A DNA stretch of 32,000 nucleotides. Origin: Deltaproteobacteria bacterium (GTDB taxonomy: Bacteria; Desulfobacterota; Deferrisomatia; Deferrisomatales; JACRMM01). The notes under the pieces were generated by a model that did not search any database, was not told the origin of the DNA, and worked only from the letters and a program-made list of their open reading frames with translations. Numbering within the stretch: the stretch's first letter is position 1; each line of letters begins with the position of its first letter. The position numbers were made by a program, and so were the translations under genes. The stretch spans positions 25,938 to 57,937 of the forward strand of contig JACRMM010000029.1 in assembly GCA_016214985.1 (NCBI GenBank), given 5' to 3'. Below, one piece after another: positions 8,061 to 32,000 of this stretch.

Positions 8061-8738
8061 TCAGCCGAGCTGCCCCAGGATGGACTTGCTCACCTCCTCG
8101 ATGGACGGGGCGCCGTCCACGGAGAGGATCCGGATCCCCGCCACGCCCTTGAAATAGTTGACCGCGGCCATGGTGCCGGCCTTGGCGTCGTAGTAGATGT
8201 CGTGGCGCTTGTTGATGGCCGTCTCATCCTGATCGTCGGCTCGGGTCTTCAAATCACCGCCGCAGACCCGGCAGACGAGCTTGCCGTTCTTCTCCACGGG
8301 TTTGATCGCGTCGAAGGCGACGTGATTGGGATGGTTGTTGTCGTTTACGCACAGCCTTCGGCCCGTGATGCGCAGCTTTGCGATCTCGCGATCGAGGACG
8401 ATCTCGATCACGCAGTCCACGTTCATCCCGGCCTTTCGGAGGGCCTCGTGAAGGCTCTGGGCCTGGGCGGGGTTCCGTGGGAACCCGTCGAGCAGCCAGC
8501 CCTTGACGCAGTCGCTCTCGCGCAGCCGGTCGAGGATCATCGGGATCGTGATGTCGTCCGGGACGAGGTCGCCTCGGTCGATGAAGCTCTTGGCCTTCAT
8601 GCCGAGGGCCGTGCCCTCCGCAATGCTCTTCCGGAAGATGGCGCCGGACTCGATGTGGGGCACCTGGTACTTTTTCTGCACCAGCGTCCCCTGCGTGCCC
8701 TTGCCGCTCCCGTTCGGCCCGAAGATCAGGATGTTCAT
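8061..8738 (-). CDS. adk: adenylate kinase (long form with Cys-containing LID)
   Basis: The ATG at 8738 gives MNILIFGPNGSGKGTQG (P-loop). Also LLDGFPRN, a LID segment with CVNDNNHPNH...CRVCGG, and RADDQDE..KRHDIYY. The start was verified against the plus-strand 'cat' at 8736..8738. Confidence 0.95.
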   Translation of the reverse strand: MNILIFGPNGSGKGTQGTLVQKKYQVPHIESGAIFRKSIAEGTALGMKAKSFIDRGDLVPDDITIPMILDRLRESDCVKGWLLDGFPRNPAQAQSLHEALRKAGMNVDCVIEIVLDREIAKLRITGRRLCVNDNNHPNHVAFDAIKPVEKNGKLVCRVCGGDLKTRADDQDETAINKRHDIYYDAKAGTMAAVNYFKGVAGIRILSVDGAPSIEEVSKSILGQLG

Positions 8739-8847
8739 GCAGCGCCCCTTTCGTGGATGAAGTTGCCGCGGCCAAACGCCTCTTCGTCCCGGTCCGTGGT
8801 CCGGGACCTGGCGCGGGGCTCCTTTTAGCAGGGAATGGCGCAGACGG

Positions 8848-9414
8848 TCAAGGAGCGCGGTGGGCGACCGAAACACGGTTCGCCGCGTCCGTGCCGAAGA
8901 CCTCCGGGCGCCGGGGCACGCCTGGAGGGGGGGGCGGGAAGCAGCGGGCCAGGAAGGCCGAGACGCGCAGCCGGGTGTCGTCCTCGTCGACGCGGTTCTT
9001 CCTCACGGCGAGGCCCCCCAGGAACCCCACGCCGAGCGCGCCGAGGCGCCGCTCCAGGGCCCTCACGTAGCGGTCCTGGTCCCAGCCGCCGCAGGTCACG
9101 GCAACGGCTGTCGGCGGCAGTCGACGGCCGCAGGACGCCAGGAAGGCGTTCACGGGGGGGCAGGAGAGGGTCCACTTGGGCAGCAGGAGCAGGCACGCGT
9201 CGAAGGGAGCCGGGTCGGGCAGCGGGCCCCGGATCGGGACGCGAGACCCGGGAAGGAACGAGAGGGCGAGCCAGAGCGGGTAGGGCAGGTCAAGCCGGGG
9301 CACGAGGATCGCGTCACCGACCTCGTGGCCGGACTCCTGGAGCTCAGATCGGCAGCGTTCGGCAAGGGTTCGGGTGGTCCCGGTCCGAGAGTAGAGGCAT
9401 CGCAGTATCTTCAC
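8848..9414 (-). CDS. flavodoxin-like fold protein (function unknown)
   Basis: The GTG at 9414 gives VKILRCLYSRTGTTRTLAE, which resembles the flavodoxin-type N-terminal phosphate-binding loop (YSxTGNT). 188 aa. No clear SD, so the start is uncertain. Confidence 0.5.
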   Translation of the reverse strand: MKILRCLYSRTGTTRTLAERCRSELQESGHEVGDAILVPRLDLPYPLWLALSFLPGSRVPIRGPLPDPAPFDACLLLLPKWTLSCPPVNAFLASCGRRLPPTAVAVTCGGWDQDRYVRALERRLGALGVGFLGGLAVRKNRVDEDDTRLRVSAFLARCFPPPPPGVPRRPEVFGTDAANRVSVAHRAP

Positions 9415-9541
9415 GGGTCGCCCCGCCCCGCAGCGACGTGGGCCATGCCGGCCTCGGCTTCGCCTGCGGGAACGCCTGCTAAATCGCCCATCGTCGCACT
9501 CCCCGAGCGCACGGGCCCCGCGGCGTGAGCTCTTCGCCGGG

Positions 9542-10156
9542 TCAGGCTCGCGCGACGCGCAGCGCGGGCTTCGGGGGAGGAGGCGAGGGTTCGGCGCCCT
9601 CCCAGCGGCGGTAGAGGTGGTGCTCGACACCGAAGGCGTCGAGCACCTTGCCCACGGTCTGGTCGATGATCTCCTGCACCGTGGTGGGGCGATGGTACCA
9701 GGCCACCATGGGCGGCAGGATCATGGCGCCGAGGTCGGCGGCCTTGAGCATCAGTTCCAGATGACCCTTGTGCAGGGGCGTCTCCCGGGGCAGGAGCACG
9801 AGCCGGCGCCGCTCCTTGAGGGCCACGTCCGCCGCGCGGTTGAGGAGGTTTTCGTTGTAGGAGTGGACGATGCCAGAGAGCGTCTTCATGGAGCACGGCA
9901 CCACGGCCATCCCCTCGGTGAGGAAGGAGCCGCTGGCGATGGAGGCCGCGATGTTCTCCACGTCGTGCACGCAGCTCGCCAGCCGTTCGACATCGGCAAC
10001 CTTCCAGTCGGTCTCGAGCTCGATGTTGCGGCGGCCGGGGTGGGTGAGCACGAGGTGCGTCTCCACGTTCGTGCGGGCGAGGACCTCCAGCAGGCGCACG
10101 CCGTAGATGACGCCAGTGGCGCCGGAGATACCGACCACGATTCGTCTCTTCTTCAT
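9542..10156 (-). CDS. ubiX: UbiX-type flavin prenyltransferase (prFMN synthase)
   Basis: The ATG at 10156 (GGGAGG about 8 nt upstream) gives MKKRRIVVGISGATGVIYGVRLLEVL. Also VPCSMKTLSGI and LVLLPRETPLH, typical UbiX/Pad1 motifs. 4-nt overlap with the upstream UbiD gene. Confidence 0.93.
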   Translation of the reverse strand: MKKRRIVVGISGATGVIYGVRLLEVLARTNVETHLVLTHPGRRNIELETDWKVADVERLASCVHDVENIAASIASGSFLTEGMAVVPCSMKTLSGIVHSYNENLLNRAADVALKERRRLVLLPRETPLHKGHLELMLKAADLGAMILPPMVAWYHRPTTVQEIIDQTVGKVLDAFGVEHHLYRRWEGAEPSPPPPKPALRVARA

Positions 10157-11508
10157 GGGGTGTGCCTCCCTGACAGAAGCGTTCTGGCCCGCTCCAAGGC
10201 GTCGGGACGGAGCGTCGCCGGGCGCCGGCCGCGCACGCGCTCGTAGCCCGTGGCGTCGAGGGCGATCTTGGCCGTGCGGAAGGGCTCGGGACACGAGGGA
10301 TCGATCGGCAGGGCCTTGAGGTCGCTCAGGATCATCGCGTCCTGATCGGGTTGAAACCGGGTGGCCAGCGCCCACTCCACGTGCACGAGGTCTCGAGGAT
10401 CCACGTCCTCGGCGACCGCCACCACCTTCTTTACCACGCCCAGCGTCAGCAGTTGGAGGAGCAAACTGCGAATCTGTTCGCGGGGCGCCGGCGCCAGGCG
10501 AACGACGAGCGAGGTCCCGCAGGTTCCGGGGACGAAGAAGAACTGCTGAGCGAAGGGAAAAAGACTGCGCACCCGGGGCGCAATGTTGGCTTCGGAGACC
10601 ACGGCGAGGAGCAGGTCCCCCTCCCGGCCAGTGGGGAGGAGGGCGTGGTACAGGGGGTCAGCCCGGTGGTAGATGCGGCGGACCCGAAACGTCGGGGTGC
10701 CGGGGAAGACGAGCGAGTATCCCCCTACCTCGCCCATGGGGCCGTCCGGGCGCTCGTCCTGTGGGTCCACCTCTCCTTCCAGGAGGAACTCCGCTCGGGC
10801 CGGTACCGGAATGCCCGTGAGGGGTGCGGCGACCACCTCGACCGGCTGGCCGTGAAGCCCTCCGGCCACGGCGAGCTTGTCCACGCCCGGGACTCCTCGC
10901 AGCGCGAATGACGCGAAGGTGAGGGGGTCGACGCCAAGCGCCACCGCCATCGGCATGGGTCGCCCCTGGGCCTTGAAGCGGGCGTAGAGCTGGGACAAGG
11001 GCGGGTTGACGAGGGCGACCCCCAACTCCCTCTCCCCGCGCAGTCCCATCCGGTGAATCCCCCGGGCGACGTCGCCGGTCTCCGGGGAGAGGGCCGACAC
11101 GAGACCGGTCGTGATGTAGGGGCCGGAGTCCTCCTGGCAATGGGTGAGGAGGGGGAGGATCCGTTCTATGGAGAGATCCGCCGGCGCCGCGCGCTCCAAG
11201 ACGGGTGCCGCTTCGGTCGAGCGAGTGGGAATGGGGTGGGAGAGTCGGCGTGCGAACTCCCCGGCCAGATCGGTCTCGTCGACGCCCATGGCCCAGGCCA
11301 GCACCTCCCGGCCGAAGATGACATTGCCCACCACCGGGACCCCAGGACCGTTGACGTGCGAGAAGTAGACGGCACCTTCCCCCCGCCGATCGGCCTCTGT
11401 CAGGACCGCCGCAACCTCGTGAGCGGGAGACACCGGCTCTGCCACCTCCAGCAGCCGGCCCCGACTCCTCAGCTCCGCCACGGTCTGCCGCAGATCTTCG
11501 AAGCCCAC
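10153..11508 (-). CDS. UbiD-family (prFMN-dependent) decarboxylase/carboxylase, third paralogue in the cluster
   Basis: 451-aa ORF with a GTG start at 11508, 4 nt after the preceding stop. UbiD-like N-terminus DLRQTVAELRSRGRLLEVAEPVSPAHEVAAV...GAVYFSHVNG. Translationally coupled to ubiX. Confidence 0.9.
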   Translation of the reverse strand: MGFEDLRQTVAELRSRGRLLEVAEPVSPAHEVAAVLTEADRRGEGAVYFSHVNGPGVPVVGNVIFGREVLAWAMGVDETDLAGEFARRLSHPIPTRSTEAAPVLERAAPADLSIERILPLLTHCQEDSGPYITTGLVSALSPETGDVARGIHRMGLRGERELGVALVNPPLSQLYARFKAQGRPMPMAVALGVDPLTFASFALRGVPGVDKLAVAGGLHGQPVEVVAAPLTGIPVPARAEFLLEGEVDPQDERPDGPMGEVGGYSLVFPGTPTFRVRRIYHRADPLYHALLPTGREGDLLLAVVSEANIAPRVRSLFPFAQQFFFVPGTCGTSLVVRLAPAPREQIRSLLLQLLTLGVVKKVVAVAEDVDPRDLVHVEWALATRFQPDQDAMILSDLKALPIDPSCPEPFRTAKIALDATGYERVRGRRPATLRPDALERARTLLSGRHTP

Positions 11509-11512
11509 GGGC

Positions 11513-11770
11513 CTACCGCCACGCCTCGGGGATCTTGTCGACGAAGGAGACCACCTCGATCGACCAGGGCTTGCCCACCCACTGACCGCGGCCGAGCCGG
11601 GGCCAGAGACGGTCGGGGTACCGATCGGGGTTGTTCGAGATCTTGGCCCGCACGCACTTGCAGCAGTACTTGGCCCGCCCGGGTGTGAGGTCTCGGATCG
11701 TCATGTCCTGCTCGGTTTCGAACACCGCCTCTTCGAGGTCAGTGAGGATGAAGGTGTCGTACTCTCGCAT
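11513..11770 (-). CDS. ppcD: 85-aa small subunit, positional and size match to the ~10 kDa phenylphosphate carboxylase delta subunit
   Basis: The ATG at 11770 is preceded by GAGGAG. 85 aa (MREYDTFILTDLEEAVFETEQD...CCKC...). It is the last gene of the UbiD-like/HAD/UbiD-like/small quartet. The assignment rests on context and size, not on recognised sequence motifs. Confidence 0.55.
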   Translation of the reverse strand: MREYDTFILTDLEEAVFETEQDMTIRDLTPGRAKYCCKCVRAKISNNPDRYPDRLWPRLGRGQWVGKPWSIEVVSFVDKIPEAWR

Positions 11771-11866
11771 AGGGGACTCCTCGTTGGCTGTCAGCGATCA
11801 GCGGTCCGCTCTCAGCTACTTCTGCTCTGGCCTCAGGCTAAGCGCTGAGATCGGATTGCTGGGTGC

Positions 11867-13315
11867 TCAGTCTTTGAACCCGTAATTCGTCCAGTTGTCC
11901 AGCACCTTCTTCTTGATGTCTTCCGGGTAGACCTTGTCGAACGAGACGAGGATCGGAATGTCGGACTTCTTCCAGTCGAGCGGAGTGAGGCAGTCGAAGA
12001 GCACCTTCGATCCCTTGCCGATCTTTCGCTCGCTCATGGGTGCGAACGGGTTCAGGGGGGTGCCGGCCGAGTTCTTGTACACGTGGATGCCGTCGACCGG
12101 GTGGCACTTGGTCGACAGGGCGTGGATCACCTTGTCCTTGTCGTAGATGTCGGTGTCCTGGTCCACGACGACCGCCATGTGGAACCAGGGGCCGAGCTTG
12201 CTGCCGAAGATCAGCTGGGCGATCTGGCTCGCGATGCCGGCGTAGGCGTTGCGCGTGCCGATCACCACGAGGTGGTGGGTCGACTCGGGCCACATGTAGA
12301 CGCCTGTGATCGGGATTCCCTGACTGCGCAGGAGTTTGTCCATCTCGAGGCCGAGCGAGAAGGAGCGCAGGAGCTGTCCCTCGTCGGTGGGCACGCCCAT
12401 GCACGAGACCGGCACGATCGGCCGGTTCCGGTGGGTGATGGCCCGGACCCGGTACACGGTGCGCGGCTCCCGAGGGGAGGTCCGGTAGCCCGTGTACTCC
12501 CCGAAGGGGGCCTCGTCGAGGGCGATGTTGGGCAGGATGTCGCCCTCGATGATGATCTCGGCGTGCGCCGGGACGTAGAGGTCGCTCAGCTCGCACTTCA
12601 CCATCTCGACCCCCTCGCCCATGAGCATCCCGCAGAACTCGTCCTCCGGGATCTGGGCAGGGGCGCAGGCGGCGATGCCGGCCAGGGGATCCATGCCGAT
12701 CACGGTGGCAAACGGCATGGGCTCGTTGCGGGGCACCGCCTTGTTCCAGAACATCTTGCCCATGTCGGAGAAGGGCAGCACGGGGCCCACCATGGTCCTC
12801 TCGTCGAAGACCATCTGGCGGTACATGCCCCAGTTGATGGCCCCGTCGTCCGGGTCCTTGGCCACGATCATGTGCCACGTCGAGAGGTAGCGCCCGCCGT
12901 CGCCCTCGTGGACCATGGGCGCGGGGAGGTCGAAGAGGTTCACGGCGTCGCCGGTGATCACGTTCTCCTTGCACGGCGCCCGGCTCCGGTCGACGAGCAC
13001 CGGCTTGTGGGGAGTGCCCCGGTCGGTGCGGTCGAGGTAGACCTGGGCGATCTGGGGGATGGGGGTCTCCGGGGGGAGACCGAGGGAGATCGCGAGCTTC
13101 CGGTAGGTGGCCAGGGGCGCACCGAAGGCCTCGAACCCGGGGTAGTCCTTGATCTTCTTGAAGTAGGGGGAGGGCGCCTGCTTTTCGCAGACGCGGCGCA
13201 CGATGGCGCCCATCTCCATGTCCCAGTCCACTTCCTGCTTCACCGTGACCAGGTCCCCGGACTTCTTCAGAGCCTTGATGAACTCGCGATTGTCCTTGTA
13301 GTACTTGTGTGGCAT
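11867..13315 (-). CDS. ppcA: UbiD-like subunit (482 aa), candidate phenylphosphate carboxylase alpha subunit
   Basis: 482-aa ORF (MPHKYYKDNREFIKALKKSGDLVTVKQEVDWDMEMGAIVRR...) with a UbiD-family N-terminal pattern. GGAG about 7 nt upstream. The size matches the ~54 kDa subunit. Confidence 0.8.
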   Translation of the reverse strand: MPHKYYKDNREFIKALKKSGDLVTVKQEVDWDMEMGAIVRRVCEKQAPSPYFKKIKDYPGFEAFGAPLATYRKLAISLGLPPETPIPQIAQVYLDRTDRGTPHKPVLVDRSRAPCKENVITGDAVNLFDLPAPMVHEGDGGRYLSTWHMIVAKDPDDGAINWGMYRQMVFDERTMVGPVLPFSDMGKMFWNKAVPRNEPMPFATVIGMDPLAGIAACAPAQIPEDEFCGMLMGEGVEMVKCELSDLYVPAHAEIIIEGDILPNIALDEAPFGEYTGYRTSPREPRTVYRVRAITHRNRPIVPVSCMGVPTDEGQLLRSFSLGLEMDKLLRSQGIPITGVYMWPESTHHLVVIGTRNAYAGIASQIAQLIFGSKLGPWFHMAVVVDQDTDIYDKDKVIHALSTKCHPVDGIHVYKNSAGTPLNPFAPMSERKIGKGSKVLFDCLTPLDWKKSDIPILVSFDKVYPEDIKKKVLDNWTNYGFKD

Positions 13316-13330
13316 GAGTCGCTCCGCTAT

Positions 13331-13431
13331 GGCTGGAAAGCTTGAAAGCCAGAGGGCTCGAAGGCCTGGAACAAGGAGGACCTAAGGCAGAAGAGAGTCT
13401 TCTGGCCTCCCAGCTTCCCAGCCTTCCAGCC
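13331..13431 (-). promoter_or_regulatory. long imperfect intercistronic RNA stem-loop in the ppcC-ppcA spacer
   Basis: Hand pairing of 13331..13363 against 13431..13399 gives 24 Watson-Crick pairs, plus 5 positions that are G-U only in the minus-sense (mRNA) transcript, out of 33. The right arm is four tandem 8-mers (CTTCTGGC CTCCCAGC TTCCCAGC CTTCCAGC on the plus strand). The ppcA SD lies outside the stem. Confidence 0.5.
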
Positions 13432-13434
13432 GTT

Positions 13435-13977
13435 TCATCCCCATCCCTTGGCGCTGACCTTGTCGACGAGCCCCTGCCACTTGCCTTGGGCGCGCAGGAT
13501 GAACTCCCCGAGCTCCCGGAGCACTCCCTGCCCGCCGGCGCGCCGGGTCACGAGGTGGGAGGCCTCCTGCACCTCCGGCACGCCGTTTGCCGGCGACACC
13601 GCGAAGCCCACCGATCGCATCACTCCCAGGTCGATGATCTCGTCGCCCACGAAGCAGATCTGGTCCAGGGCGAGCCCCATCTCGTCGGCCACCTCCTGGA
13701 GCTTCGTGGCCTTGTCCTTGGCCTGGATCACTCGCTTGATCCCCACCTCGGCCGCGCGCAGCTCGACGATCTTCGACTTGCGGGTCATGAGGGCCACTTC
13801 GATCCCGAGCATCATGAGGCAGTTGGCCCCGAATCCGTCGTCGTGGCAGAAGGCCTGGAACTTCATGCCATCCTCGTTGTAGAGGACGACCCCCGTCGTC
13901 AGGACGCCGTGAACGTCCAGTACGACCATCTTGATCTTCTTTGCCCGCTCGATGGCGTCCATGAAGTCGTATGCCAT
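13435..13977 (-). CDS. ppcC: KdsC-like HAD-superfamily phosphatase subunit (180 aa), candidate phenylphosphate carboxylase gamma subunit
   Basis: HAD motifs: motif I VVLDVHGVLTTG (DxH instead of DxD), motif II ALMTRKS, Lys region QAKDKATKL, motif IV VGDEIIDLGVM. Size matches the ~18 kDa subunit. Located between the two UbiD-like genes. Confidence 0.82.
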   Translation of the reverse strand: MAYDFMDAIERAKKIKMVVLDVHGVLTTGVVLYNEDGMKFQAFCHDDGFGANCLMMLGIEVALMTRKSKIVELRAAEVGIKRVIQAKDKATKLQEVADEMGLALDQICFVGDEIIDLGVMRSVGFAVSPANGVPEVQEASHLVTRRAGGQGVLRELGEFILRAQGKWQGLVDKVSAKGWG

Positions 13978-14053
13978 GACCGCGAATCTCCTTGTCGTCT
14001 GTGGTTTCGAGTTCCCAGTTCCCAGTTCTGGACCCCCTCGTCCCTGACCCCCC

Positions 14054-15472
14054 CTAGTCCAGCCCCAGCTCCGACCACCTCGCCTTGACCTTGTCCAGCA
14101 TCTCCTTGGACATCTCCACCTGCACCGGCTTGTCCTTCCACTCGAAGGGGATGGTGGCGTCCATGATGATGCGGGACGTAATGAACTTGTTGACGTTGTC
14201 GTGCAACGCCGGGTCCAGGGGGGTGGAGCGGCCGCGGTGGATGATCTGGGTTCCGCGTTCGGCGTCGTAGCGTGTGGCCAATGCCCACCAGACCCGGGGC
14301 AGGTCGTCGGCCCGAATGTCGTCGTCGACGATGATGAGGCCCTTCAGCCCGTACGTGCACGTATTGCTCGCGATCACCGCGGCGGCAACCTGGTTCGAGT
14401 GGCCCGGGTACATCTGCTTGACCGAGACGATGGCCCAGAATCGGCCGCAGGCCTCGGGCGGCATGTAGACGGACTGGATGCCGGGGATGCCCATCTTCGT
14501 GAGCTCGGTCCACAGGGTCGCGTTTCGCACGAAGGCCAGCATCATGTGGTTGTCGTTCACCGGCCGACCGACCGAAGCGGCGAGGAAGATCGGGTTGTTG
14601 CGGTGGTAGATCCGCTGGACCTCGATCGCGGGCTTCAAGACCGGCTTGTAGATCTCCTCGGTGTAGTAGCCCGTGTACTCGCCGAAGGGACCTTCGGGCC
14701 GCAGGTTGTCGCCGTCGATATAGCCCTCGAGCACCCACTCGGCCGTGGCCGGGATCGGCAGCCCCGTGAGCGGCGCCTTCACGATCTCCACCGGCTCCCC
14801 GCGCAGCGTGCCCACGATGTCGTATTCGTTGGCGTTCTCCACCATGGCGCTGCCCGCGAGCATCAGGAGCGGGTCGCACCCCACGATCATGCACACGGGC
14901 ATCTTCTTGCCCATCTTCCGGTACTTCTGGAGGATGCGGTCTCCTCGCTTCCCCTTGAGGATCTGGGCGCCGACGGTTTTCGAATCGAGCACCTGGCTGC
15001 GGTAGGTGCCGAGGTTGATCTCTCCGGTCTCCGGGTCCTGGACGACCATGAAGCAGGCTGTGCCGATGTAGCGGCCGCCGTCCTTCTCGTAGAACTTCGG
15101 GGCCGGGATCTTGAAGATGTCGACGGCGTCGCCCTCGATGACGTTCTCGAAGACGGGGCCGGTTTCCACCTCCCGAGCCCGGATGACCTCGCCCACGGAG
15201 AGCTTCATCCACTCGTAGGAGAGCTCGCACATGGTCAGGTTCGTGGGCCTCCCGAGCACCAGGGCCAGACGCTTGGTGCTGCTGTAGGCGCCGAACATCA
15301 CGGACATCGACCGGTCGTGGCCCTTGACGTTCTCGAAGACGAGCGCCGGCCCGTCCTTCTCCTCGACGAGCTTGGCGATGTGGCTCATCTCGAGGTTCCA
15401 GTCCACCTCGGCCGTGACCCGCTTGAGGTCGCCTTCCTTCTCGCAGAGGGCGATGAAGTCGCGCATATCCAT
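14054..15472 (-). CDS. ppcB: UbiD-like subunit (472 aa), candidate phenylphosphate carboxylase beta subunit
   Basis: The ATG at 15472 (GGAGGAACACC upstream) gives MDMRDFIALCEKEGDLKRVTAEVDWNLEMSHIAKLVEEKDGPALVFENVKG, a typical UbiD-family N-terminus. 472 aa matches the ~53 kDa subunit. Confidence 0.82.
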   Translation of the reverse strand: MDMRDFIALCEKEGDLKRVTAEVDWNLEMSHIAKLVEEKDGPALVFENVKGHDRSMSVMFGAYSSTKRLALVLGRPTNLTMCELSYEWMKLSVGEVIRAREVETGPVFENVIEGDAVDIFKIPAPKFYEKDGGRYIGTACFMVVQDPETGEINLGTYRSQVLDSKTVGAQILKGKRGDRILQKYRKMGKKMPVCMIVGCDPLLMLAGSAMVENANEYDIVGTLRGEPVEIVKAPLTGLPIPATAEWVLEGYIDGDNLRPEGPFGEYTGYYTEEIYKPVLKPAIEVQRIYHRNNPIFLAASVGRPVNDNHMMLAFVRNATLWTELTKMGIPGIQSVYMPPEACGRFWAIVSVKQMYPGHSNQVAAAVIASNTCTYGLKGLIIVDDDIRADDLPRVWWALATRYDAERGTQIIHRGRSTPLDPALHDNVNKFITSRIIMDATIPFEWKDKPVQVEMSKEMLDKVKARWSELGLD

Positions 15473-15528
15473 GGTGTTCCTCCGGCTGGCAGCGGTGAGC
15501 GGTCAAACAATGGTTGGAATGCTAGTCG

Positions 15529-15557
15529 ACCCCTCGGGGTGGGTCAATTCACATAAG
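15529..15557 (-). promoter_or_regulatory. candidate sigma70-type internal promoter upstream of ppcB
   Basis: On the minus strand: TTGACC (15557..15552), 17-nt spacer, TAGCAT (15534..15529). It sits in the AT-richer 130-nt gap between the BASS and ppcB genes. An inverted repeat CATAAGTTTATG (15562..15573) lies just upstream of the -35. Confidence 0.3.
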
Positions 15558-15602
15558 TTTATGCGATCTATAAGGAGAACTATGAGAGGCGGGATCGAAT
15601 GG

Positions 15603-16601
15603 TCAGACGCGCGGCGGCTCTCGCCTCCTCGCCGCGATCTTGCCGACGAGGTACGCGTCCGTCGCAAGGTGCACGATGTGGTGGACGACGCAGAAGACCA
15701 GGGCCTGACCCTGGGTCGGGAAGAGCGCGGTCTGGACGAGCACGGCGATCGGGAGGGTCTTCTGCCCTCCCATGAACCACACGACCTCCCGTCGGCCCGG
15801 TCCGAGCCTCGCCGCCTTCGCGCACCCTGCTGCCGTCAGGAGCAGCACGGCGTGGAAAGAGAAGGCGAGGGCACAGGACACCGCCGCCGCGGCGGAAGCG
15901 GCCCGGATGGTGGCGTGAGAACGCGAGAGCGCGATCCATACCACGGCGAGCACGAGGCACTGGTTGATGCTTGCGATCCCTGCCGGAAGGCGGAGCCCGG
16001 CCGCCGCCGATACCCTGCGGAGCCCCATCCCGATCACGAGCGGCAGCGCGACCAGGATCGCCAGATCTCCCGCGAGGGCAGAGGTGTCGAGGGCCGCCGC
16101 CGCCGTGTCCCGAGCTGTTCCGAGCAGCCACTCGAGCGATAGGGGGATGGTGAGGATTCCCAGCCAGCTGGCGGCCACTGTCACAACCAGCGAGGTCGCG
16201 AGGTTGCCGCCCGCGAGCGCCCCCATGACGACCCCGCTGCTCAGCGTCGTGGGCATGATGGAGACGAGAAGGAGGCCGATGCGGATCCCAGGTTCGAGGG
16301 GCAGGAGGCTGTGGGCCAGGGCCACGAGGGGGGCCCCGACGAAGATGACGGCAAGGGACACGGCGAGGACCCGGACGTCGGCGAGCCCTCTCCGGGCCTG
16401 ACGGCCGTCCAGCCCCAGCCCGGAGAACAGAAACATGAGGAACGCGCAGACCTGTGCTCCCCTCCTCGCGCCGAGCCACCGGCCCGCCCCCACCACGAGG
16501 CCGCTTCGGTCGGCGGCGGTCAGGGCGGCGAGGCCGAGCAGCGCGAGCAGAAACCAGTGCCTGCGCAGGACGTCCGGGGAGAACTGCCGAAGGCCCGTCA
16601 C
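15603..16601 (-). CDS. bile acid:sodium symporter (BASS/SBF-like) family permease
   Basis: 332-aa polytopic membrane ORF with a GTG start. Contains LFSGLGLD, IMPTTLSSGVVMGALAGGN and VVWFMGGQKTLP, typical of the SBF-like/YfeH family. Confidence 0.78.
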   Translation of the reverse strand: MTGLRQFSPDVLRRHWFLLALLGLAALTAADRSGLVVGAGRWLGARRGAQVCAFLMFLFSGLGLDGRQARRGLADVRVLAVSLAVIFVGAPLVALAHSLLPLEPGIRIGLLLVSIMPTTLSSGVVMGALAGGNLATSLVVTVAASWLGILTIPLSLEWLLGTARDTAAAALDTSALAGDLAILVALPLVIGMGLRRVSAAAGLRLPAGIASINQCLVLAVVWIALSRSHATIRAASAAAAVSCALAFSFHAVLLLTAAGCAKAARLGPGRREVVWFMGGQKTLPIAVLVQTALFPTQGQALVFCVVHHIVHLATDAYLVGKIAARRREPPRV

Positions 16602-16653
16602 GGGAGCGCCGTCCTCGTCCGTGGGCTCGGGGCGGTCGGAGGGCGTCGCCCGG

Positions 16654-18180
16654 CTAATCCGAAAGCCCGGTGAGGCGGTTCTTCTGGATCTTGCCCATCG
16701 CGTTTCGCGGCAGGGCAGGAATGGGGTGGATCTGCTTCGGGCACTTGTAGCCCGCGAGCTTCCCTCGGCAGAGGGCGATCAGTTCGGCCTCCGGCGGCAG
16801 GTCGGTTCCCTCTTTCGGTGCGACGAAGGCGACGACCTTCTCACCGAAGTCCTCGTCCGGGAGGCCGATTACGGCGGCCTCCTTCACGGCCTCGTGGCTC
16901 TCCAGGACGTTTTCGATCTCCTTCGGGTACACGTTGTACCCGCCCGTGATGATGAGCTCCTTGCCCCGGCCGACCAGGAAGAGCCGTCCCCCGTCCGCCG
17001 GGTCTTGATAACCCAGGTCCCCCGAGCGGAACCAGGCGCCCGCGAAGGACTCTGCGGTTTTTTCGGGCATCTCCCAGTAGCCCTTGAAGACGTTGTCGCC
17101 CCGGATCCACACCTCACCCACGTCGCCCGGCCGAACGTCGGCGCCGTCCGGACCCACGACCCGGATCGCTACGCCCGGGAGCGGATAGCCGACGCTCTTG
17201 GCCACGCGGCCGGCGGGGTCAATGAGGTTCGAGGTGTTCATGCCGGTCTCGGTCATGCCGTAGCGTTCCAAGATCCGAAAGCCCGTGGCGGCCTCGAATC
17301 GGTGGAAGAGGTTGTCGGAGAGGGGGGCCGAGCCCGAGATGAACACCCGCATCCGGCCGAGGTCGGGCTTTCGTTCGAGGGCCTCCCACTCGCTCATCAG
17401 GCGCTGGTAGACCGTGGGGACGGCCATGAGGAGCGTGCACCGCTCCCGTTCCAGGGCCTCCCACGCTCGCCGGGGCTCGAACTTTTCGTCCATGATCAGG
17501 GTCCCGCCCGCGTGGAGGCTCCCGTGGGTCGCCACGTTGAGTCCGTGCACGTGGAAGAGCGGCAGCACGTGGAGGAGCACGTCCCGGTCCGTCCACTGCC
17601 ACGCCTCTTGGAGCGAGAGCAGGTTGGCCACGAGGTTTCGGTGGGTGATCATGGCGCCCTTGGAGCGGCCCGTGGTGCCCGACGTATAGCAGATCATCGC
17701 CGTATCGTCCCCGACGGCGTCGTAGGGGCGACGAAAATCGGTCGGCGCGTTTGCCAACGCGGCTCCGAGACTCCCGGCGGCGGAGCCCTCGTTCCCGTCC
17801 GCTAGGAGCACCCGGAGCGCCCCCAGCCCCGTCAGGGCGTCGGCCACCCTCGCGAACCTCTCGCGGTCGGTCACGAAGAGGGAGCTTCCGGAGTCGGAGA
17901 GGAAGTACGCGACCTCCTCGGCCCGATAGTCGGAGTTCAGCGGCAGCGTGATCGCCCCGAGGGAGAGCGTGGCAAAATGAAGGAAGAGAAACTCCACGCG
18001 CTTCGGGAGTTGGAGGGCGACCCGGTCCCCCGTCCCGATCCCCAGGGAAGAGAGCGCGGCCGCGTAGCGCTCCACCTCGTGGTCGAAGGCCGCGTAGGTG
18101 TATGGTACGCCTTCGAAGACGAGGGCGGTCTTGTCGGGGCGCTTCGCGGCGTTCTCCGAGATCCGGCGGGCGAGGTTCAT
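16654..18180 (-). CDS. AMP-forming acyl-CoA synthetase/ligase (candidate aromatic acid-CoA ligase)
   Basis: 508 aa with GGAGGAGG upstream. ANL-superfamily motifs YTSGTTGRSKGAMITHRN, GYWEMPEKT, FRSGDLGY, ITGGYNVYPKEIE and GKIQKNRL. Confidence 0.9.
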   Translation of the reverse strand: MNLARRISENAAKRPDKTALVFEGVPYTYAAFDHEVERYAAALSSLGIGTGDRVALQLPKRVEFLFLHFATLSLGAITLPLNSDYRAEEVAYFLSDSGSSLFVTDRERFARVADALTGLGALRVLLADGNEGSAAGSLGAALANAPTDFRRPYDAVGDDTAMICYTSGTTGRSKGAMITHRNLVANLLSLQEAWQWTDRDVLLHVLPLFHVHGLNVATHGSLHAGGTLIMDEKFEPRRAWEALERERCTLLMAVPTVYQRLMSEWEALERKPDLGRMRVFISGSAPLSDNLFHRFEAATGFRILERYGMTETGMNTSNLIDPAGRVAKSVGYPLPGVAIRVVGPDGADVRPGDVGEVWIRGDNVFKGYWEMPEKTAESFAGAWFRSGDLGYQDPADGGRLFLVGRGKELIITGGYNVYPKEIENVLESHEAVKEAAVIGLPDEDFGEKVVAFVAPKEGTDLPPEAELIALCRGKLAGYKCPKQIHPIPALPRNAMGKIQKNRLTGLSD

Positions 18181-18199
18181 CTCGGTCCTCCTCCTTCCC

Positions 18200-19525
18200 T
18201 CATCCGATCATCATGGCCGGGAGCCACGTGGCGAGCCCGGGAAAGAAGCACAGGATCAGCATGCCCAGGAACAGGAGCAGGATGAATGGCGTGGAGCCCC
18301 GGAGCACGGTGGAGAGGGGGATGTCCGGCACGATTCCCTGGACGATGTACAGGTTCAGGCCCACGGGCGGAGTAATGAGACCTGCCTCGAGGTTGAGCGT
18401 CATGAGGACGCCGAACCAGATGGGGTCAAAGCCCAACCCCTTGATGATGGGGTGCAGGATGGGAGAGAGGATCAGGATGATCGCGACCGGCGGCAGGAAG
18501 CATCCCGCCACCAGGAGCAGCACGTTGATCAGGAGCATGATCGCCCACCGGTTCACCGGCAGCGCGATGATGTCCTGCGCCAGGGTCTGCGCGACGTAGA
18601 GCTGGGTCAGGACGGCGCCGAACAGGAAGGAGGTGGCGATGATCATCATGATCATCGTGCTCTCCTTGGCGCTGCGGAGCAGGATGTTCTTGAGATCCCG
18701 GGGACGGTAGAGCCGGTAGAGCGCCATCGCGACGACCAGCACCAGAAACGCCCCCACGGCGGCCGCCTCGCTCGGGGTGGCCCAGCCCGTGTACAGGGAG
18801 CCCAGTACGAGGGCCACGACCACGAGGAAGGGGAAGACCTTCCCGGTGAGCGCGAGCTTCTCCGCCCAGGTGAAGGACTCGGCAGGGTGCGGCGCGTGCC
18901 CCGAGCCCTGCCTCTTCCGGTTGTCCCGGCCATAGGCGAAGGGTATCCAGGCGGAGAAGAGGAGCGACACCATGAGCCCGGGGATGATGCCGGCGATGAA
19001 GAGCTTGCCGATGGAGGTCTCCGTGGCGAGCCCGTAGACGATCATGGTGACGCTTGGGGGGATGAGGATGCCGAGGGTGCCGCCGGCCGTAATGATGCCG
19101 GTGGCCAGCCCGTCTGCGTAGCCTCGCTTTCGCATCTCGGGGATTCCCATGGTCCCGATGGCGGCCGCGCAGGCCGGGCTCGACCCCGTGAGCGCTGCGA
19201 AGATCGCGCAGGCGCCGATGTTCCCGATCCCGAGCCCCCCGGGAATCTTGTGCAGCCACCGGTGGAAGCACTCGTAGAGATCGCCCCCCGCCCTCGTCAT
19301 TGCCGCGATCATACCCATGAAGATGAAGAGCGGGATGGAGAGCAGGCTGAAGTCGTTCACGCCCTCGAAGACGTTCTCCGCCACCATGGAGATCTGGACC
19401 GCGTCCGTGAAGAGGAACATGGCCGCCAGGGCCGACACGCCGAGGGCGAAGGTGATGGGCATCCCGCTGAAGAGAAAGACCAGCGCAATCGCGAGGACGA
19501 TGCACCCGATCCAGAGTGGATTCAT
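18200..19525 (-). CDS. dctM: TRAP transporter large permease subunit
   Basis: 441-aa polytopic ORF (MNPLWIGCIVLAIALVFLFSGMPITFALG...) typical of DctM. ATGA overlap with the dctQ stop. Confidence 0.93.
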   Translation of the reverse strand: MNPLWIGCIVLAIALVFLFSGMPITFALGVSALAAMFLFTDAVQISMVAENVFEGVNDFSLLSIPLFIFMGMIAAMTRAGGDLYECFHRWLHKIPGGLGIGNIGACAIFAALTGSSPACAAAIGTMGIPEMRKRGYADGLATGIITAGGTLGILIPPSVTMIVYGLATETSIGKLFIAGIIPGLMVSLLFSAWIPFAYGRDNRKRQGSGHAPHPAESFTWAEKLALTGKVFPFLVVVALVLGSLYTGWATPSEAAAVGAFLVLVVAMALYRLYRPRDLKNILLRSAKESTMIMMIIATSFLFGAVLTQLYVAQTLAQDIIALPVNRWAIMLLINVLLLVAGCFLPPVAIILILSPILHPIIKGLGFDPIWFGVLMTLNLEAGLITPPVGLNLYIVQGIVPDIPLSTVLRGSTPFILLLFLGMLILCFFPGLATWLPAMMIG

Positions 19526-20112
19526 GCCGCTCTCCTCGTGGGCGCGACCCCACGGACCCCGTTACGGCGCGCTGCGAGACGCCCCGGACCCTGTTTGCGC
19601 CCGCCTGCCTCCCCCCCCCGGAGCCCCTTCACCCGTTCTGCCAGCCGCAACAGGTATTGCAGCGACGTGAGGGCCATGCCCAGGGGAAGAAGGGCATAGG
19701 GATAGACCAGCGGGAAGGAGAAGATGCCCGAGGACGTCCAGCCGCCCTCGTACGCGTCCCACCACATGGCGCTGCCCCGCCACGCAAGAAAGAGGCAGAA
19801 CGCGAGCGCGATGACCGACGTCACCAGATCGAGCCACTCCCGCGCCCGACGCGAGAGGTGGAGGATGATCATGTCAATGTTGATGTGGGCGTTTTCCTTG
19901 AGGCCGTAGGGGGCGCCCAGGAAAGTCGCCGCGATGAGCAGGTAGACCGACGTCTCCACCTGCCAGACCGTCGGCACCTTGAAGACGTACCGTACCACCA
20001 CCTGCTCGACGATGATCAAGGTCGCCGCCAGGATGCACAGCGCGCTCACGTAGCCCGCCAGCGTGCTGAGGCCGTTGACGGCGCGAACGATCGGGTTCGT
20101 GCTCTCGGACAT
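19522..20112 (-). CDS. dctQ: TRAP transporter small permease subunit
   Basis: 196-aa ORF with four hydrophobic segments, located between dctP and dctM. Has a basic C-terminal tail. Confidence 0.85.
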   Translation of the reverse strand: MSESTNPIVRAVNGLSTLAGYVSALCILAATLIIVEQVVVRYVFKVPTVWQVETSVYLLIAATFLGAPYGLKENAHINIDMIILHLSRRAREWLDLVTSVIALAFCLFLAWRGSAMWWDAYEGGWTSSGIFSFPLVYPYALLPLGMALTSLQYLLRLAERVKGLRGGEAGGRKQGPGRLAARRNGVRGVAPTRRAA

Positions 20113-20173
20113 GGTTCGCCGCCTGTGGTCGGGAGCCCCGCCGGCACCGCGGCGGCGGGGCTCGTGTCTTGCG

Positions 20174-21181
20174 CTACTTGTTGGCCAGGTCCAGGAGCTC
20201 CCTGCCGGCAGGCACGTCCTGCGCGAACTTGACCCAGGACGTCTCCTCGGCCACTTTCTTCCACGCCTTGAACTCGTCCTTGGTCATGGGATGCACCTTG
20301 ACCTTCTTTTCCGCAAAGACCTTTCCGGCCTCCTTGTTGGCGGCCACGGCGTCGTCGCGCGCCTTCTTCTCGAGCTCCAGCCCCACCGCCTCGACGACCT
20401 TCTGCTGGGCCGGCGTGAGCGACTCCCACACCTTGGTGCTCATCACCAGAGGCTCTGCCATGTACCAGATGGCGTAGGTGTCCGGGCTGTTGAAGTACTC
20501 GAGCTGCTCGTAGAGCCGGTAGGAGACGAAGGACTCGGCCGAGGTCATGCAGGCGTCGAGAACCTTGGTCTGGAGGGCCATGTAGATCTCGGAGGACGGC
20601 ATGCTGGTGATGGACGCACCCTGGGTGTTGAGCAGGTACTCGAAGTACTTGCCCGCGGCGCGGAACTTCAGACCCTTGGCGTCCGCCGGCAGGTTGACGG
20701 CCTTTCCGCGGCTTCCGATGCCCCCGCCGTACCAGAGCCAGGTCAGGATCTTCATCCCCTTGTCCTGGGAGATCTTGGCGACCCTCTTCCCGATCTCCTT
20801 CCCACGCCACGACATCCCTTCGTCGACCGATTCGACGATCCCGGGCATCAGCGTGATCTCTAACTCGGGGACCTTGCCGGAGGCGTAGGCGAGGGGGAAG
20901 ACCGAGAGGTCCAGGGCCCCCTTGGCCATGGCGTCGTACTGGGCGTTGGCCTTGAACAGGGCCGCCGAGGGGAAGATCTTGAAGGTCGGCTCGCCGTTGG
21001 TGGCCTTCTCTACGCGTTTGGCGAACTCCGCGGCGAGCTCGTGGCGGGCGTCGGCCTCGGCGAACTGGTGGGAGATCTTGAGCTCCCGAGCTTCGGCCTC
21101 CAGTGGCACAAAGGCGGCACGCACGCACAGGAACGCGCCAGCGGCCAACAGGGTTGCTGCAACGGTTCTCTTCTGGGGCAT
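20174..21181 (-). CDS. dctP: TRAP transporter solute-binding protein (DctP family)
   Basis: The ATG at 21181 (GGAGGAG upstream) gives MPQKRTVAATLLAAGAFLCVRAAF (signal peptide), followed by LKISHQFAEADARHE...FPSAALFKANAQYDAMAKGALD, typical of DctP. 335 aa. Confidence 0.9.
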   Translation of the reverse strand: MPQKRTVAATLLAAGAFLCVRAAFVPLEAEARELKISHQFAEADARHELAAEFAKRVEKATNGEPTFKIFPSAALFKANAQYDAMAKGALDLSVFPLAYASGKVPELEITLMPGIVESVDEGMSWRGKEIGKRVAKISQDKGMKILTWLWYGGGIGSRGKAVNLPADAKGLKFRAAGKYFEYLLNTQGASITSMPSSEIYMALQTKVLDACMTSAESFVSYRLYEQLEYFNSPDTYAIWYMAEPLVMSTKVWESLTPAQQKVVEAVGLELEKKARDDAVAANKEAGKVFAEKKVKVHPMTKDEFKAWKKVAEETSWVKFAQDVPAGRELLDLANK

Positions 21182-21222
21182 CTTCGCTCTCCTCCGGTCT
21201 GGGGTTGCGCTGCGGGGGCCGT

Positions 21223-21897
21223 TCAACCCGTGGGTTTCGCCGGGGTGTTCGCTTCGTACACGCGCACCAGGGCTTGCCCCTGCCTGACCAGGTGGCTCTT
21301 CATCAGGGCTTCCGCCGCCTCGGCCTCGCGGTTGCGGAAGGCGCTCAAGATGTCTCGATGCTCTTGGATCGACTCGTCGAACCGCTTCGCCTCGAAGATC
21401 TGCCGGTACCGGTACAGAAGGATCTTCTCCCGCAGTCCGTTGAGGATGCCGTTCAAGATCCGGTTCCCCGTGAGCTCCTGCACCAGCTCGTGAAAGACGT
21501 TGTTCGTCTTGATGTACCCGTCCCGGTCGCCGCGGGCGTAGTGCTGCTCCAGCTTGTCGTGGAGTCGCTCCAGCTTGGCGAGCGAGGCCGCGCTCATCCT
21601 CTCCGTCGCCATGCGGGCACAGGTGCCCTCGAGGATGCTCATGACCTCGAACATCTCCCGGACGTCGTCGAGGGACGGTTCGCTTACGAAAGCCCCCTTG
21701 TTGGGGACGAGACAAATCAGTCCCTCTGAGCTCAGAACCCGCAGCGCCTCGCGCAGGGGAGTCCGGCTGACGCCGACAGCCGCACACAGCTCCGCTTCAA
21801 CGACCCGCTGGCCCTTGGTCAAAACACCTTTTCGGATCATCTCGCGGATCCTGGATGCCACGTCCTGATGGAGGGAGCGAGCGGCGATCTTCTGCAA
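21223..21897 (-). CDS. GntR/FadR-family transcriptional regulator
   Basis: wHTH segment LHQDVASRIREMIRKGVLTKGQRVVEAELCAAVGVSRTPLREALRVLSSEGLI plus an FCD-like helical C-terminal domain. The preferred start is the TTG at 21897 (AGGAGAG about 7 nt upstream); the track's start at 21966 is also a TTG. Confidence 0.88.
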   Translation of the reverse strand: MQKIAARSLHQDVASRIREMIRKGVLTKGQRVVEAELCAAVGVSRTPLREALRVLSSEGLICLVPNKGAFVSEPSLDDVREMFEVMSILEGTCARMATERMSAASLAKLERLHDKLEQHYARGDRDGYIKTNNVFHELVQELTGNRILNGILNGLREKILLYRYRQIFEAKRFDESIQEHRDILSAFRNREAEAAEALMKSHLVRQGQALVRVYEANTPAKPTG

Positions 21898-21948
21898 TCG
21901 TGGTCTCTCCTGATCTGCAGAGAAGGAGGGGTGCCGAGCGGCGAGTCG

Positions 21949-21960
21949 ATTGTATACAAT
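21949..21960. promoter_or_regulatory. perfect 12-bp palindrome ATTGTATACAAT, candidate GntR-family operator
   Basis: Self-complementary with a GT..AC core, as in GntR/FadR-type operators. Lies in the AT-rich gap about 50 nt upstream of the gntR-like start and overlaps the predicted -10. Confidence 0.5.
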
Positions 21961-21979
21961 ATGCAATTATGAATGTCAA
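21951..21979 (-). promoter_or_regulatory. candidate sigma70 promoter of the gntR-TRAP-ligase-ppc operon
   Basis: On the minus strand: TTGACA (21979..21974), 17-nt spacer, TATACA (21956..21951). A TACAAT alternative sits 2 nt further on. Confidence 0.45.
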
Positions 21980-24332: not shown

Positions 24333-24593
24333 CGCCGTAGCCGAAGCCGCGTTTCGAGCCGGAACCCCTACGCTGGACGGACGCCCCGCAGGGCGCCGCT
24401 CGGCATCCGCGCCGCTCGGGTCGGGCGGGGTCTGACCGTCGGGGCAGACCTGCGCACCGTGGCGTGCGTGTGCGCTGCGGCGGTGTCCGTGATCTTCGGG
24501 CTGTGCGTGCCCTTCTGTTCGCGCGCCCGGGCTCGCAGGGCTTCACATCTCTTCTCGTTTGGCTTCTCATCGGGGAGGCCGGGAGGGTTGGTC

Positions 24594-28997: not shown

Positions 28998-29452
28998 TCG
29001 TCACCGACAACCTGGGCGCCACGGGGTCCGACACGGCAGCGGTCACGGTCAGCGCAATGCCCACGAACCTTGCGCTCAACCAGACGGCTACCGCCTCGTC
29101 GACGCGCAGCGGAACCTCGTACACGGCGGCCAAGGCGGTCGACGGCAGCGCGTCCACCTCGTGGATGAGCAGCACGACCTCCGGCGCCCAGTGGGTCCGA
29201 GTGGACCTCGGGGCGAGCTACACGATCTCGAACGTCAAGGTCGTCTGGCCTGCGACGTACTACGCTAAGGCGTTCCAGATCCAGACTTCGAACGACGGCA
29301 CGAACTTCACGTCACGGTACTCGACCAGCAGTGGAGCCGGCGGCACCACCACCGCGACCTTCACTGCGGTGAGCGCCCGCTACGTGCGCGTCTACTGCAC
29401 GACTCGCAACAACTCGTCCTACTACGGGGTCTCCGAGCTGGAGGTCTACCCC
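27004..29452 (+). repeat. intragenic tandem domain repeats: discoidin-PKD-PKD-discoidin-PKD-PKD-PKD(truncated)-discoidin
   Basis: PKD copies share long near-identical DNA stretches, for example ggctactcctggaactggggcgacggcacggc. Approximate copy boundaries: 27004, 27402, 27669, 27933, 28327, 28591, 28856, 29057. Confidence 0.85.
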
Positions 29453-29455
29453 TGA
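28910..29455 (+). CDS. 3' continuation of the cytochrome gene in the +2 frame (rest of fifth PKD plus third F5/8-type-C domain)
   Basis: From TGG at 28910 the frame reads WSWGDGTANTNTQNASHTYAAAGTYTATLIVTDNLGATGSDTAAVTVSAMPTNLALNQTATASS... and runs to the stop at 29453..29455. The track lists only the M-started part, 29057..29455. It is followed by a strong terminator. Confidence 0.65.
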   Translation, partial: WSWGDGTANTNTQNASHTYAAAGTYTATLIVTDNLGATGSDTAAVTVSAMPTNLALNQTATASSTRSGTSYTAAKAVDGSASTSWMSSTTSGAQWVRVDLGASYTISNVKVVWPATYYAKAFQIQTSNDGTNFTSRYSTSSGAGGTTTATFTAVSARYVRVYCTTRNNSSYYGVSELEVYP

Positions 29456-29476
29456 CGGGTCGGACGCGGAACACAG

Positions 29477-29510
29477 GGGCGGCGCTCCGCGGGGCGCCGC
29501 CCTTTTTCTT
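29477..29510 (+). terminator. rho-independent terminator
   Basis: GGGCGGCGC (29477..29485), 8-nt loop, GCGCCGCCC (29494..29502), then TTTTTCTT. Begins 22 nt after the stop at 29455. Confidence 0.7.
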
Positions 29511-29559
29511 CGGAGCCGCGCCGCAGCCCCCGATCGGCGTCTTGCTCACCATCCGGAAG

Positions 29560-30987: not shown

Positions 30988-31103
30988 GCCCGGGGGCGGT
31001 TGCCTGCGCAGCCCTCTCTGCCACCCGCACGGGAGCGCGGCAACCCGAAGACGCCTCAGCCGTCCTGCGCTTGGCGCTCCGAAGTTCTCTGATCCGGTCC
31101 CAG

Positions 31104-31319
31104 CTACTGCCGTTCGGGGTCTGAGTCGAACTGCTCGGGGAGGGGCTGCGGCCCGGGGACGATCCCCGCGATGTCCGGGTCTTCGTCGCCCTCGCCTCGG
31201 GGCGCGCTGGCTTTGCGCTCCTTCGCCTCGAGTCGACGGGCGCTCTTTTGCTGCTGCCTCTCCTGCAGCACCTTTTCTCTCTGTCTCTTGAGCATCTTCG
31301 GTCTGGCGTTTTTCCCCAT
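31104..31319 (-). CDS. small highly charged protein (basic N-terminal half, acidic C-terminal half), 71 aa
   Basis: ATG at 31319 with AAGGAG about 9 nt upstream. Sequence MGKNARPKMLKRQREKVLQERQQQKSARRLEAKERK...DEDPDIAGIV. No family recognised. Confidence 0.6.
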   Translation of the reverse strand: MGKNARPKMLKRQREKVLQERQQQKSARRLEAKERKASAPRGEGDEDPDIAGIVPGPQPLPEQFDSDPERQ

Positions 31320-31437
31320 AGGTTGGGTCTCCTTCTCTGGATTCTATCCGGTCGTGTCGGTCTTCGGTCGGGGCGGCGATGCCCCTGTCCGGGGGGCGTC
31401 CCGCCCCGGGGCGCTCCCATCCCGCGTCGGCAGCCCT

Positions 31438-31998: not shown

Positions 31999-32000
31999 CT

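Follow-up and report, generated by a model that had tools for sequence, protein, structure and literature searches.

We analysed a stretch of 32,000 nucleotides from contig JACRMM010000029.1 of a Deferrisomatales-related bacterium (the window), in which genes for a phenylphosphate carboxylase (ppc) are directly preceded by co-oriented genes for a regulator, transporters and a CoA ligase. Our data very probably describe two independent transcription units that lie head-to-tail on the minus strand, a ppc operon and a malonate-type module, the first being part of a normal phenol system of phenylphosphate synthase (pps) and ppc genes. Unit 1 (15573 to 9542) is predicted to be a canonical operon of beta, delta (a HAD protein), alpha, gamma, a UbiD-like protein and UbiX, with its own LysR-type operator and sigma-70-like promoter. 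Unit 2 (21897 to 15603) would serve the GntR-controlled uptake and activation of a small dicarboxylate, most probably malonate, and a genome rearrangement would have put it at the site that is held by LysR in related genomes.

Open reading frames (ORFs) of the window, which has a base composition of ~67% G+C, were filtered by third-position G+C (GC3) and compared with gene calls made independently for a second assembly, with which the gene starts are consistent. Twelve minus-strand genes lie between 9542 and 21897. An earlier reading, made from the sequence alone (the sequence-only reading), had counted thirteen; fourteen are reached only by adding an unnamed ORF (~8848-9423) and the adenylate kinase (8061-8876). 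It had correctly described the run as co-oriented and tightly spaced, adjacent genes overlapping by as much as 4 bases or standing at most 130 bp apart, and Pfam and NCBIfam profile searches confirmed its gene family assignments. The widest gap (130 bp) is the junction of the permease of unit 2 with beta. The features of unit 1 are the following:

9542-10156, minus strand: UbiX, 204 amino acids (aa); NF004685, 264.9 bits, cut-off 188
10153-11508, minus strand: third UbiD-family protein, 451 aa; TIGR00148, 246.8 bits, cut-off 244.85
11513-11770, minus strand: gamma, small subunit, 85 aa; Pfam PF09662 Phenyl_P_gamma
11867-13315, minus strand: alpha, UbiD-like, 482 aa; TIGR02723
13435-13977, minus strand: delta, HAD/KdsC-like phosphatase subunit, 180 aa; tentatively assigned from position and D-x-H-G motif
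14054-15472, minus strand: beta, UbiD-like, 472 aa; TIGR02724
15519-15573, minus strand: conserved ppc promoter region with LysR-type box, -35 and -10

Both large subunits were recognised by their equivalog models: beta matches TIGR02724 end to end with 685.3 bits (cut-off 468.95) and contains the three UbiD Pfam domains, alpha matches TIGR02723 with 701.9 bits (cut-off 564.6), and each of them scores far lower against the model of the other. The small subunit gamma belongs to the Phenyl_P_gamma family, scoring 56.3 bits against PF09662 at a cut-off of 25. Thus the earlier proposal of a Ppc-type quartet accompanied by UbiD and UbiX stands, but its lettering, ppcBCAD, does not: the published naming assigns delta to the 18-kDa phosphatase subunit and gamma to that of 10 kDa (PMC6114531), which makes the order beta-delta-alpha-gamma. 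All six ORFs from UbiX to beta are intact, with GC3 values of 0.81-0.94 in five of the six; UbiX failed the GC3 filter.

One genome per species was scanned, which gave 46 loci; 39 of them share with the window the core of beta, one or in some cases two HAD genes, alpha, gamma, UbiD and UbiX. The nearest ones come from Deferrisomatales and other Thermodesulfobacteriota metagenome-assembled genomes (MAGs), where alpha is 77-93% identical; the upper value is reached by the alpha subunits of L001 and L034, and beta is 82-86% identical to the beta subunits of Deferrisomatales. In these loci the HAD gene is located between beta and alpha in every case, and gamma follows directly after alpha in all that are complete. 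Motif I of the HAD protein reads DVHG, where KdsC has DVDG, and D-[VI]-H-G is present in 57 of the 57 ppc-linked HAD proteins of the window and the 39 loci. To judge by these alignments the motif is a signature of the clade, and it places the HAD protein of the window with the carboxylase-linked subunits. Across this clade the general acid/base at Asp+2 is replaced by His.

The related loci show two architectures: the group to which the window belongs has one HAD gene, and a Syntrophorhabdus-type group (L009-L012, L014-L020, L022, L025-L028, L030-L032, L036) has two paralogous HADs, each 37-44% identical to that of the window. An AMP-forming ligase gene is found between the two HAD genes of L010 and L025.

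Residues of the two large subunits were mapped on Fdc1 by HMMER alignment and a MAFFT transfer at low identity. On this mapping alpha and beta retain five of the six catalytic or ligand residues, namely the equivalents of N168, R173, E233, E277 and E282, and at the position of H191 alpha has Asp and beta has Lys. The PDB entries searched contained no phenylphosphate carboxylase structure, and the top matches were generic UbiD-family decarboxylases.

UbiX is a flavin prenyltransferase, which makes the prenylated flavin mononucleotide (prFMN) cofactor. Its start codon overlaps the stop codon of the third UbiD gene by 4 bases, and the coupling of these two genes had been seen correctly before. 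A UbiD gene comes after gamma in about 30 of the loci, and the third UbiD of the window is the counterpart of the UbiD-like ORF8 that was named in the Thauera phenol cluster (PMC6114531). According to a low-identity alignment this protein has kept Arg, Asp and Glu in the catalytic motif and carries Ala, Pro and Lys at the ligand positions N168, H191 and E233 of Fdc1; it may have an unusual mode of cofactor binding. The same Ala/Pro/Lys pattern is repeated in the orthologues of L002, L003 and L014. Right after UbiX there is an ORF of ~190 aa (window ~8848-9423) with no Pfam or NCBIfam match. Its counterpart in L039, with 62% identity, is located 5 kb from UbiX on the downstream side, and the genes in between, for a histidine kinase, a sigma-54 regulator and a 183-aa protein, are not present in the window.

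According to the known pathway, which we predict for this organism, Pps would phosphorylate phenol to phenylphosphate, and delta would then free phenolate from phenylphosphate. The core of alpha, beta and gamma, which probably depends on prFMN provided via UbiX, would carboxylate the phenolate to 4-hydroxybenzoate.

Such a route calls for Pps, and the sequence-only reading had stressed that its genes were absent. This is true for the 32 kb of the window, where domain searches detected no phosphoenolpyruvate (PEP)-synthase-like gene and where tblastn with the pps, LysR and other conserved neighbours of the relatives gave nothing better than E 0.01. It is not true beyond the window, as pps starts 1.3 kb past the right end. 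The RRM protein of the right window end led us to an overlapping contig of the second assembly (Logan contig SRR12113394_30043), which is 100% identical to window positions 29008-32000 over 2,993 bases and extends outward past that end. The genes found there are listed in window-equivalent coordinates:

32242-32445, carboxylase strand: cold-shock gene
32767-33219, carboxylase strand: conserved ORF, 150 aa
33280-34344, carboxylase strand: PPDK_N protein (ATP-binding domain), 354 aa
34417-36261, carboxylase strand: PEP-utilizers protein (His-carrying mobile domain), 614 aa
36332-36979, carboxylase strand: ORF, 215 aa
37373-38305, divergent: LysR
38326-38868: conserved ORF, 180 aa, no known domain
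38894-39973: riboflavin-kinase/HAD fusion

The PEP-synthase-like pair is located 1.3-4.3 kb past the window, and together with LysR it occupies 1.3-6.3 kb. Its two proteins share 74% and 76% identity with the pair next to ppc in L003, the 614-aa protein scores 895 bits against NF006152 (cut-off 723), and the sizes of the 614-aa and 354-aa proteins agree with the Pps subunits of 70 kDa and 40 kDa (PMC6114531). The LysR protein beside the pair shares 72.5% identity with the one encoded next to ppc in L034. Among the related loci the same 614-aa/354-aa pair is present in 17 of 39 within the fetched flank, or in 15 of the 20 that have at least 5 kb upstream of beta, and a LysR-type homologue, usually divergent from beta, is present in 28 of 39. 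Therefore the first of the two explanations offered earlier, that pps lies elsewhere, was right. The sequence-only reading had also held that ppsABC immediately beyond the window would make this an ordinary phenol cluster, and this is the place where the pair was found. In this genome ~18 kb of unrelated genes separate pps from beta, and LysR is ~22 kb away.

One alternative was rejected, namely that the ppc genes of the window are a second paralogue and that the true copy stands by pps: the 10 kb next to pps contain no ppc genes, and the unnamed ORF after UbiX is syntenic with L039. Splitting of the cluster seems to be common in this lineage. In the closest relatives, L034 (250-6400) and also L008 and L035, ~6 kb of unrelated ORFs are placed between the end of pps and LysR-ppc, and on mere inspection of their translations these ORFs resemble a corrinoid adenosyltransferase, a Cu/Zn-SOD, a hydrolase and a CPBP protease. 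The fusion protein beside LysR and pps (L049 2026-3673, ~38.3-40.0 kb) joins a CTP-dependent riboflavin-kinase domain to a HAD phosphatase, and relatives of this protein and of the 180-aa ORF are found in 14-15 phenol clusters, where they may help to supply flavin for prFMN.

The region upstream of beta (15519-15573) contains a palindromic LysR-type box, TTAT-N7-ATAA, then GAATTGACC and then a -10-like TAGCAT, with TTGACC as the -35. It is the only sigma-70-like site that was found between 8700 and 22500, and its 29-base promoter motif occurs once in the window and in 0 of 100 shuffles. The block aligns with the regions upstream of beta in seven relatives. DNA homology of the window to the related loci is confined to 9597-15585, so the homologous segment ends 18 bases short of the permease stop codon. 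The conserved block is kept in the 130-bp gap, and therefore the ppc genes retain their own operator and promoter. The region upstream of pps (L049 4790-4920) has GAATTGACC and a CTAnACT -10 block in common with the ppc promoter, together with a portion of the upstream box, which suggests one LysR regulon over two operons ~18 kb apart. The control had been described before as GntR-type and different from the sigma-54 system; the difference is real and lineage-wide, but the regulator appears to be LysR and not GntR.

One would argue that the ppc genes of the window are a stranded remnant, which was cut off from LysR and from the sigma-54 two-component genes and is no longer responsive to phenol. 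The LysR gene is indeed no longer adjacent, and the 183-aa ORF, the histidine kinase and the sigma-54 response regulator that come after UbiX in relatives are missing here. However, the six ORFs are intact, with the GC3 values given above, the operator and promoter are conserved, and the LysR orthologue is found ~22 kb away beside pps, whose promoter has the same blocks. We regard such a loss of the phenol response as scarcely credible.

The genes of unit 2, which precede the ppc promoter, are the following:

15603-16601, minus strand: SBF-like (SLC10A7-type) permease, 332 aa; PF13593, 150 bits
16654-18180, minus strand: MatB-like AMP-forming CoA ligase, 508 aa
18200-19525, minus strand: DctM, 441 aa; Pfam match
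19522-20112, minus strand: DctQ, 196 aa; Pfam match; overlaps DctM by 4 bases
20174-21181, minus strand: DctP, 335 aa; Pfam match
21223-21897, minus strand: GntR/FCD regulator, 224 aa; PF00392 and PF07729

The best solved relative of the ligase is the malonyl-CoA synthetase of R. palustris (4fuq; E 1.6e-115), which is matched by residues 16-503, that is over the full length. MatB reaches 390 bits, compared with 164 bits (E 4e-47) for the structures of benzoate-CoA ligase. The best NCBIfam model of the ligase is that of malonyl-CoA synthase (NF005702), with 540.3 bits slightly under the cut-off of 558, and its top 25 NCBIfam matches include no aromatic-acid ligase model. Homologues with 70-75% identity carry the JGI names malonyl-CoA/methylmalonyl-CoA synthetase. 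The solute-binding protein DctP tells a similar story: among solved structures it is nearest to 4MCO (E 5e-73, against 9e-23 for the runner-up), the binding site of which contains malonate (PMC4086125).

These data bear on the question whether the MatB-like ligase was recruited as a 4-hydroxybenzoate-CoA ligase, in which case a merged route would lead from phenol to 4-hydroxybenzoyl-CoA and the TRAP transporter would import 4-hydroxybenzoate. The phenol pathway does require a 4-hydroxybenzoate-CoA ligase, in relatives the ppc cluster contains or adjoins a gene for a PaaK-like or other AMP-forming ligase, and neither the window nor the next 10 kb showed such a gene. However, the ligase of the window is just 29-30% identical to the ligases that are embedded in ppc clusters, it shares 70-75% with annotated malonyl/methylmalonyl-CoA synthetases, two of which stand beside malonyl-CoA decarboxylase, and its match to MatB (E 1e-115) is far above that to benzoate-CoA ligase. 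We therefore consider this recruitment improbable, and the merging of phenol and 4-hydroxybenzoate routes that had been suggested earlier is not upheld, the ligase being MatB-like and not like benzoate or 4-hydroxybenzoate ligases.

The sequence-only reading had further described the ppc genes as fused to DctPQM, a BASS permease, the ligase and GntR. Comparison with other genomes speaks against such a fusion: relatives of the window's GntR, of DctPQM, of the ligase (>45% identity) or of the permease are present in none of the 39 related ppc loci, and these genes stand alone elsewhere. None of the three MatB homologues that could be placed (70-73% identity) is near ppc. Two loci (L050 and L051) have MCD|MatB-DctPQM clusters, in which malonyl-CoA decarboxylase (MCD) adjoins and ppc is absent, and L052 has GntR-DctP-DctQ-DctM-ligase in the order of the window, again without ppc. 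Homologues of the permease (59-64% identity) adjoin GntR-DctPQM-CoA-transferase modules that have no ppc, and in the Deferrisomatales MAG C14-16 a GntR-DctPQM-CoA-transferase-SBF module and ppc are located on different contigs. The GntR protein of the window is 58-59% identical to the ones that head the modules of L052 and L054, and GntR, DctP, DctQ and DctM are 57-75% identical to their counterparts in these modules. Taken together, the closest relatives and the stand-alone modules of other genomes indicate that unit 2 is a mobile, self-contained dicarboxylate module, its substrate most probably being malonate. In L053 (3977-6963) DctQ and DctM are called as several short fragments, and the TRAP module of this locus may be decaying or poorly assembled.

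Several points weigh against the scheme of two independent units that serve phenol and malonate. Against the narrower model TIGR02725 gamma scores 54.5 bits, under the cut-off of 135.55, and delta scores 131 bits against TIGR02726, under the cut-off of 282 and slightly less than its 138 bits against the KdsC model NF007019, which are likewise under the cut-off (208). The junction of the permease with beta yielded no terminator-like site, and ppc could be transcribed by read-through from unit 2. In the 215-aa ORF ahead of the 614-aa gene no CBS or other domain was detected, and it is at most a candidate counterpart of the 24-kDa Pps gamma subunit of Thauera. The substrate of unit 2 is made uncertain by two relatives which have a CoA-transferase in place of the ligase, and the window contains no malonyl-CoA decarboxylase. 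Additionally, the link between pps and the window is the identical overlap of 2,993 bases with the contig of the second assembly, and not one continuous record.

Some of these points would be expected if a Ppc-like complex were coupled to the TRAP, BASS, ligase and GntR genes and acted on another aryl phosphate or on an imported aryl carboxylate, possibly as a decarboxylase. This was the second explanation of the sequence-only reading. The twelve genes are co-oriented with short gaps and without a terminator-like site before beta, gamma and delta are under their equivalog cut-offs, and the arrangement is repeated in an independent assembly of the same organism. On the other hand, pps and LysR are found 1.3-6.3 kb outside the window, the module accompanies ppc in 0 of 39 related loci and is free-standing in other genomes, the LysR-flanked L034 has orthologues of alpha and beta with 93% and 85% identity, the ppc promoter is kept, and the ligase and DctP are nearest to malonate proteins and not to aromatic-acid ones. 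A TRAP/BASS-fed complex with another aryl substrate and GntR control is contradicted by the nearby pps, by the independence of the module and by the promoter and LysR box that ppc has of its own, and we judge it highly improbable. A slightly better, though still very small, chance is left to a rearrangement that was not neutral, by which transcription of the GntR module reads into ppc, so that the genes respond to dicarboxylate and phenol, or by which alpha, beta and gamma serve a second substrate. We thus return to the two head-to-tail units as the explanation that agrees best with the data.

The rest of the window encodes a B12/radical-SAM enzyme, a hybrid sensor kinase, an adenylate kinase, a TPR protein, a PKD/CXXCH protein, a NosD-like protein and an RRM protein, and Rfam and tRNA scans of the window gave no matches. 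The protein encoded at 24459-28997 (1,512 aa) combines a paired-CXXCH motif with four PKD domains and two F5/8 type C domains. A break of the second assembly falls inside this PKD protein, at 29008, and a repeat is probably the cause.

The apparent absence of genes at the edge of the window and the adjacency of co-oriented genes gave a false lead, which is corrected here. With this correction an uncultured, Deferrisomatales-related lineage of iron reducers, represented here by a MAG, joins the organisms that are predicted to degrade phenol anaerobically via phenylphosphate. This lineage seems to use a LysR-type regulator and a sigma-70-like promoter, unlike the sigma-54 control of the denitrifier models. 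For enzymology there are two small leads, the D-x-H-G signature in the HAD subunits and the altered ligands of the third UbiD.

Malonate modules consist of the matB ligase, the matA decarboxylase and matPQM for TRAP uptake, and unit 2 likewise has a MatB-like ligase and DctPQM with a GntR/FCD regulator at its head. The Rhizobium regulator MatR is also a GntR-family protein. Unit 2 differs from these modules by an extra SBF-like permease, and the window differs by the lack of malonyl-CoA decarboxylase, which L050 and L051 possess. The pairing of matB with matPQM uptake genes has been described (PMC13134296).

The pps-ppc system of Thauera aromatica and Aromatoleum aromaticum has in common with ours the four subunits (two UbiD-like, one HAD-type and one of ~10 kDa), a further UbiD-like ORF, UbiX and a split PEP-synthase-like pair of ~70 kDa and ~40 kDa (PMC6114531). 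In those denitrifiers, however, pps and ppc are contiguous and controlled by the sigma-54 PheR system (PMC10715001), whereas here ~18 kb of unrelated genes lie between them and the control is predicted to be of LysR type with a sigma-70-like promoter. Moreover, gamma and delta are here too divergent for the betaproteobacterial equivalog models, and a CBS/AcuB-type Pps gamma subunit as in Thauera was not seen. The phenol genes are also dispersed in Desulfatiglans anilini and Geobacter metallireducens. Both are strict anaerobes that were formerly placed in the Deltaproteobacteria, and their pps and ppc genes likewise do not form one contiguous operon (PMC6114531; PMC7500099). In these two organisms gamma is missing and the quartet is only partly represented near pps, whereas in the genome described here all four subunit genes are adjacent.

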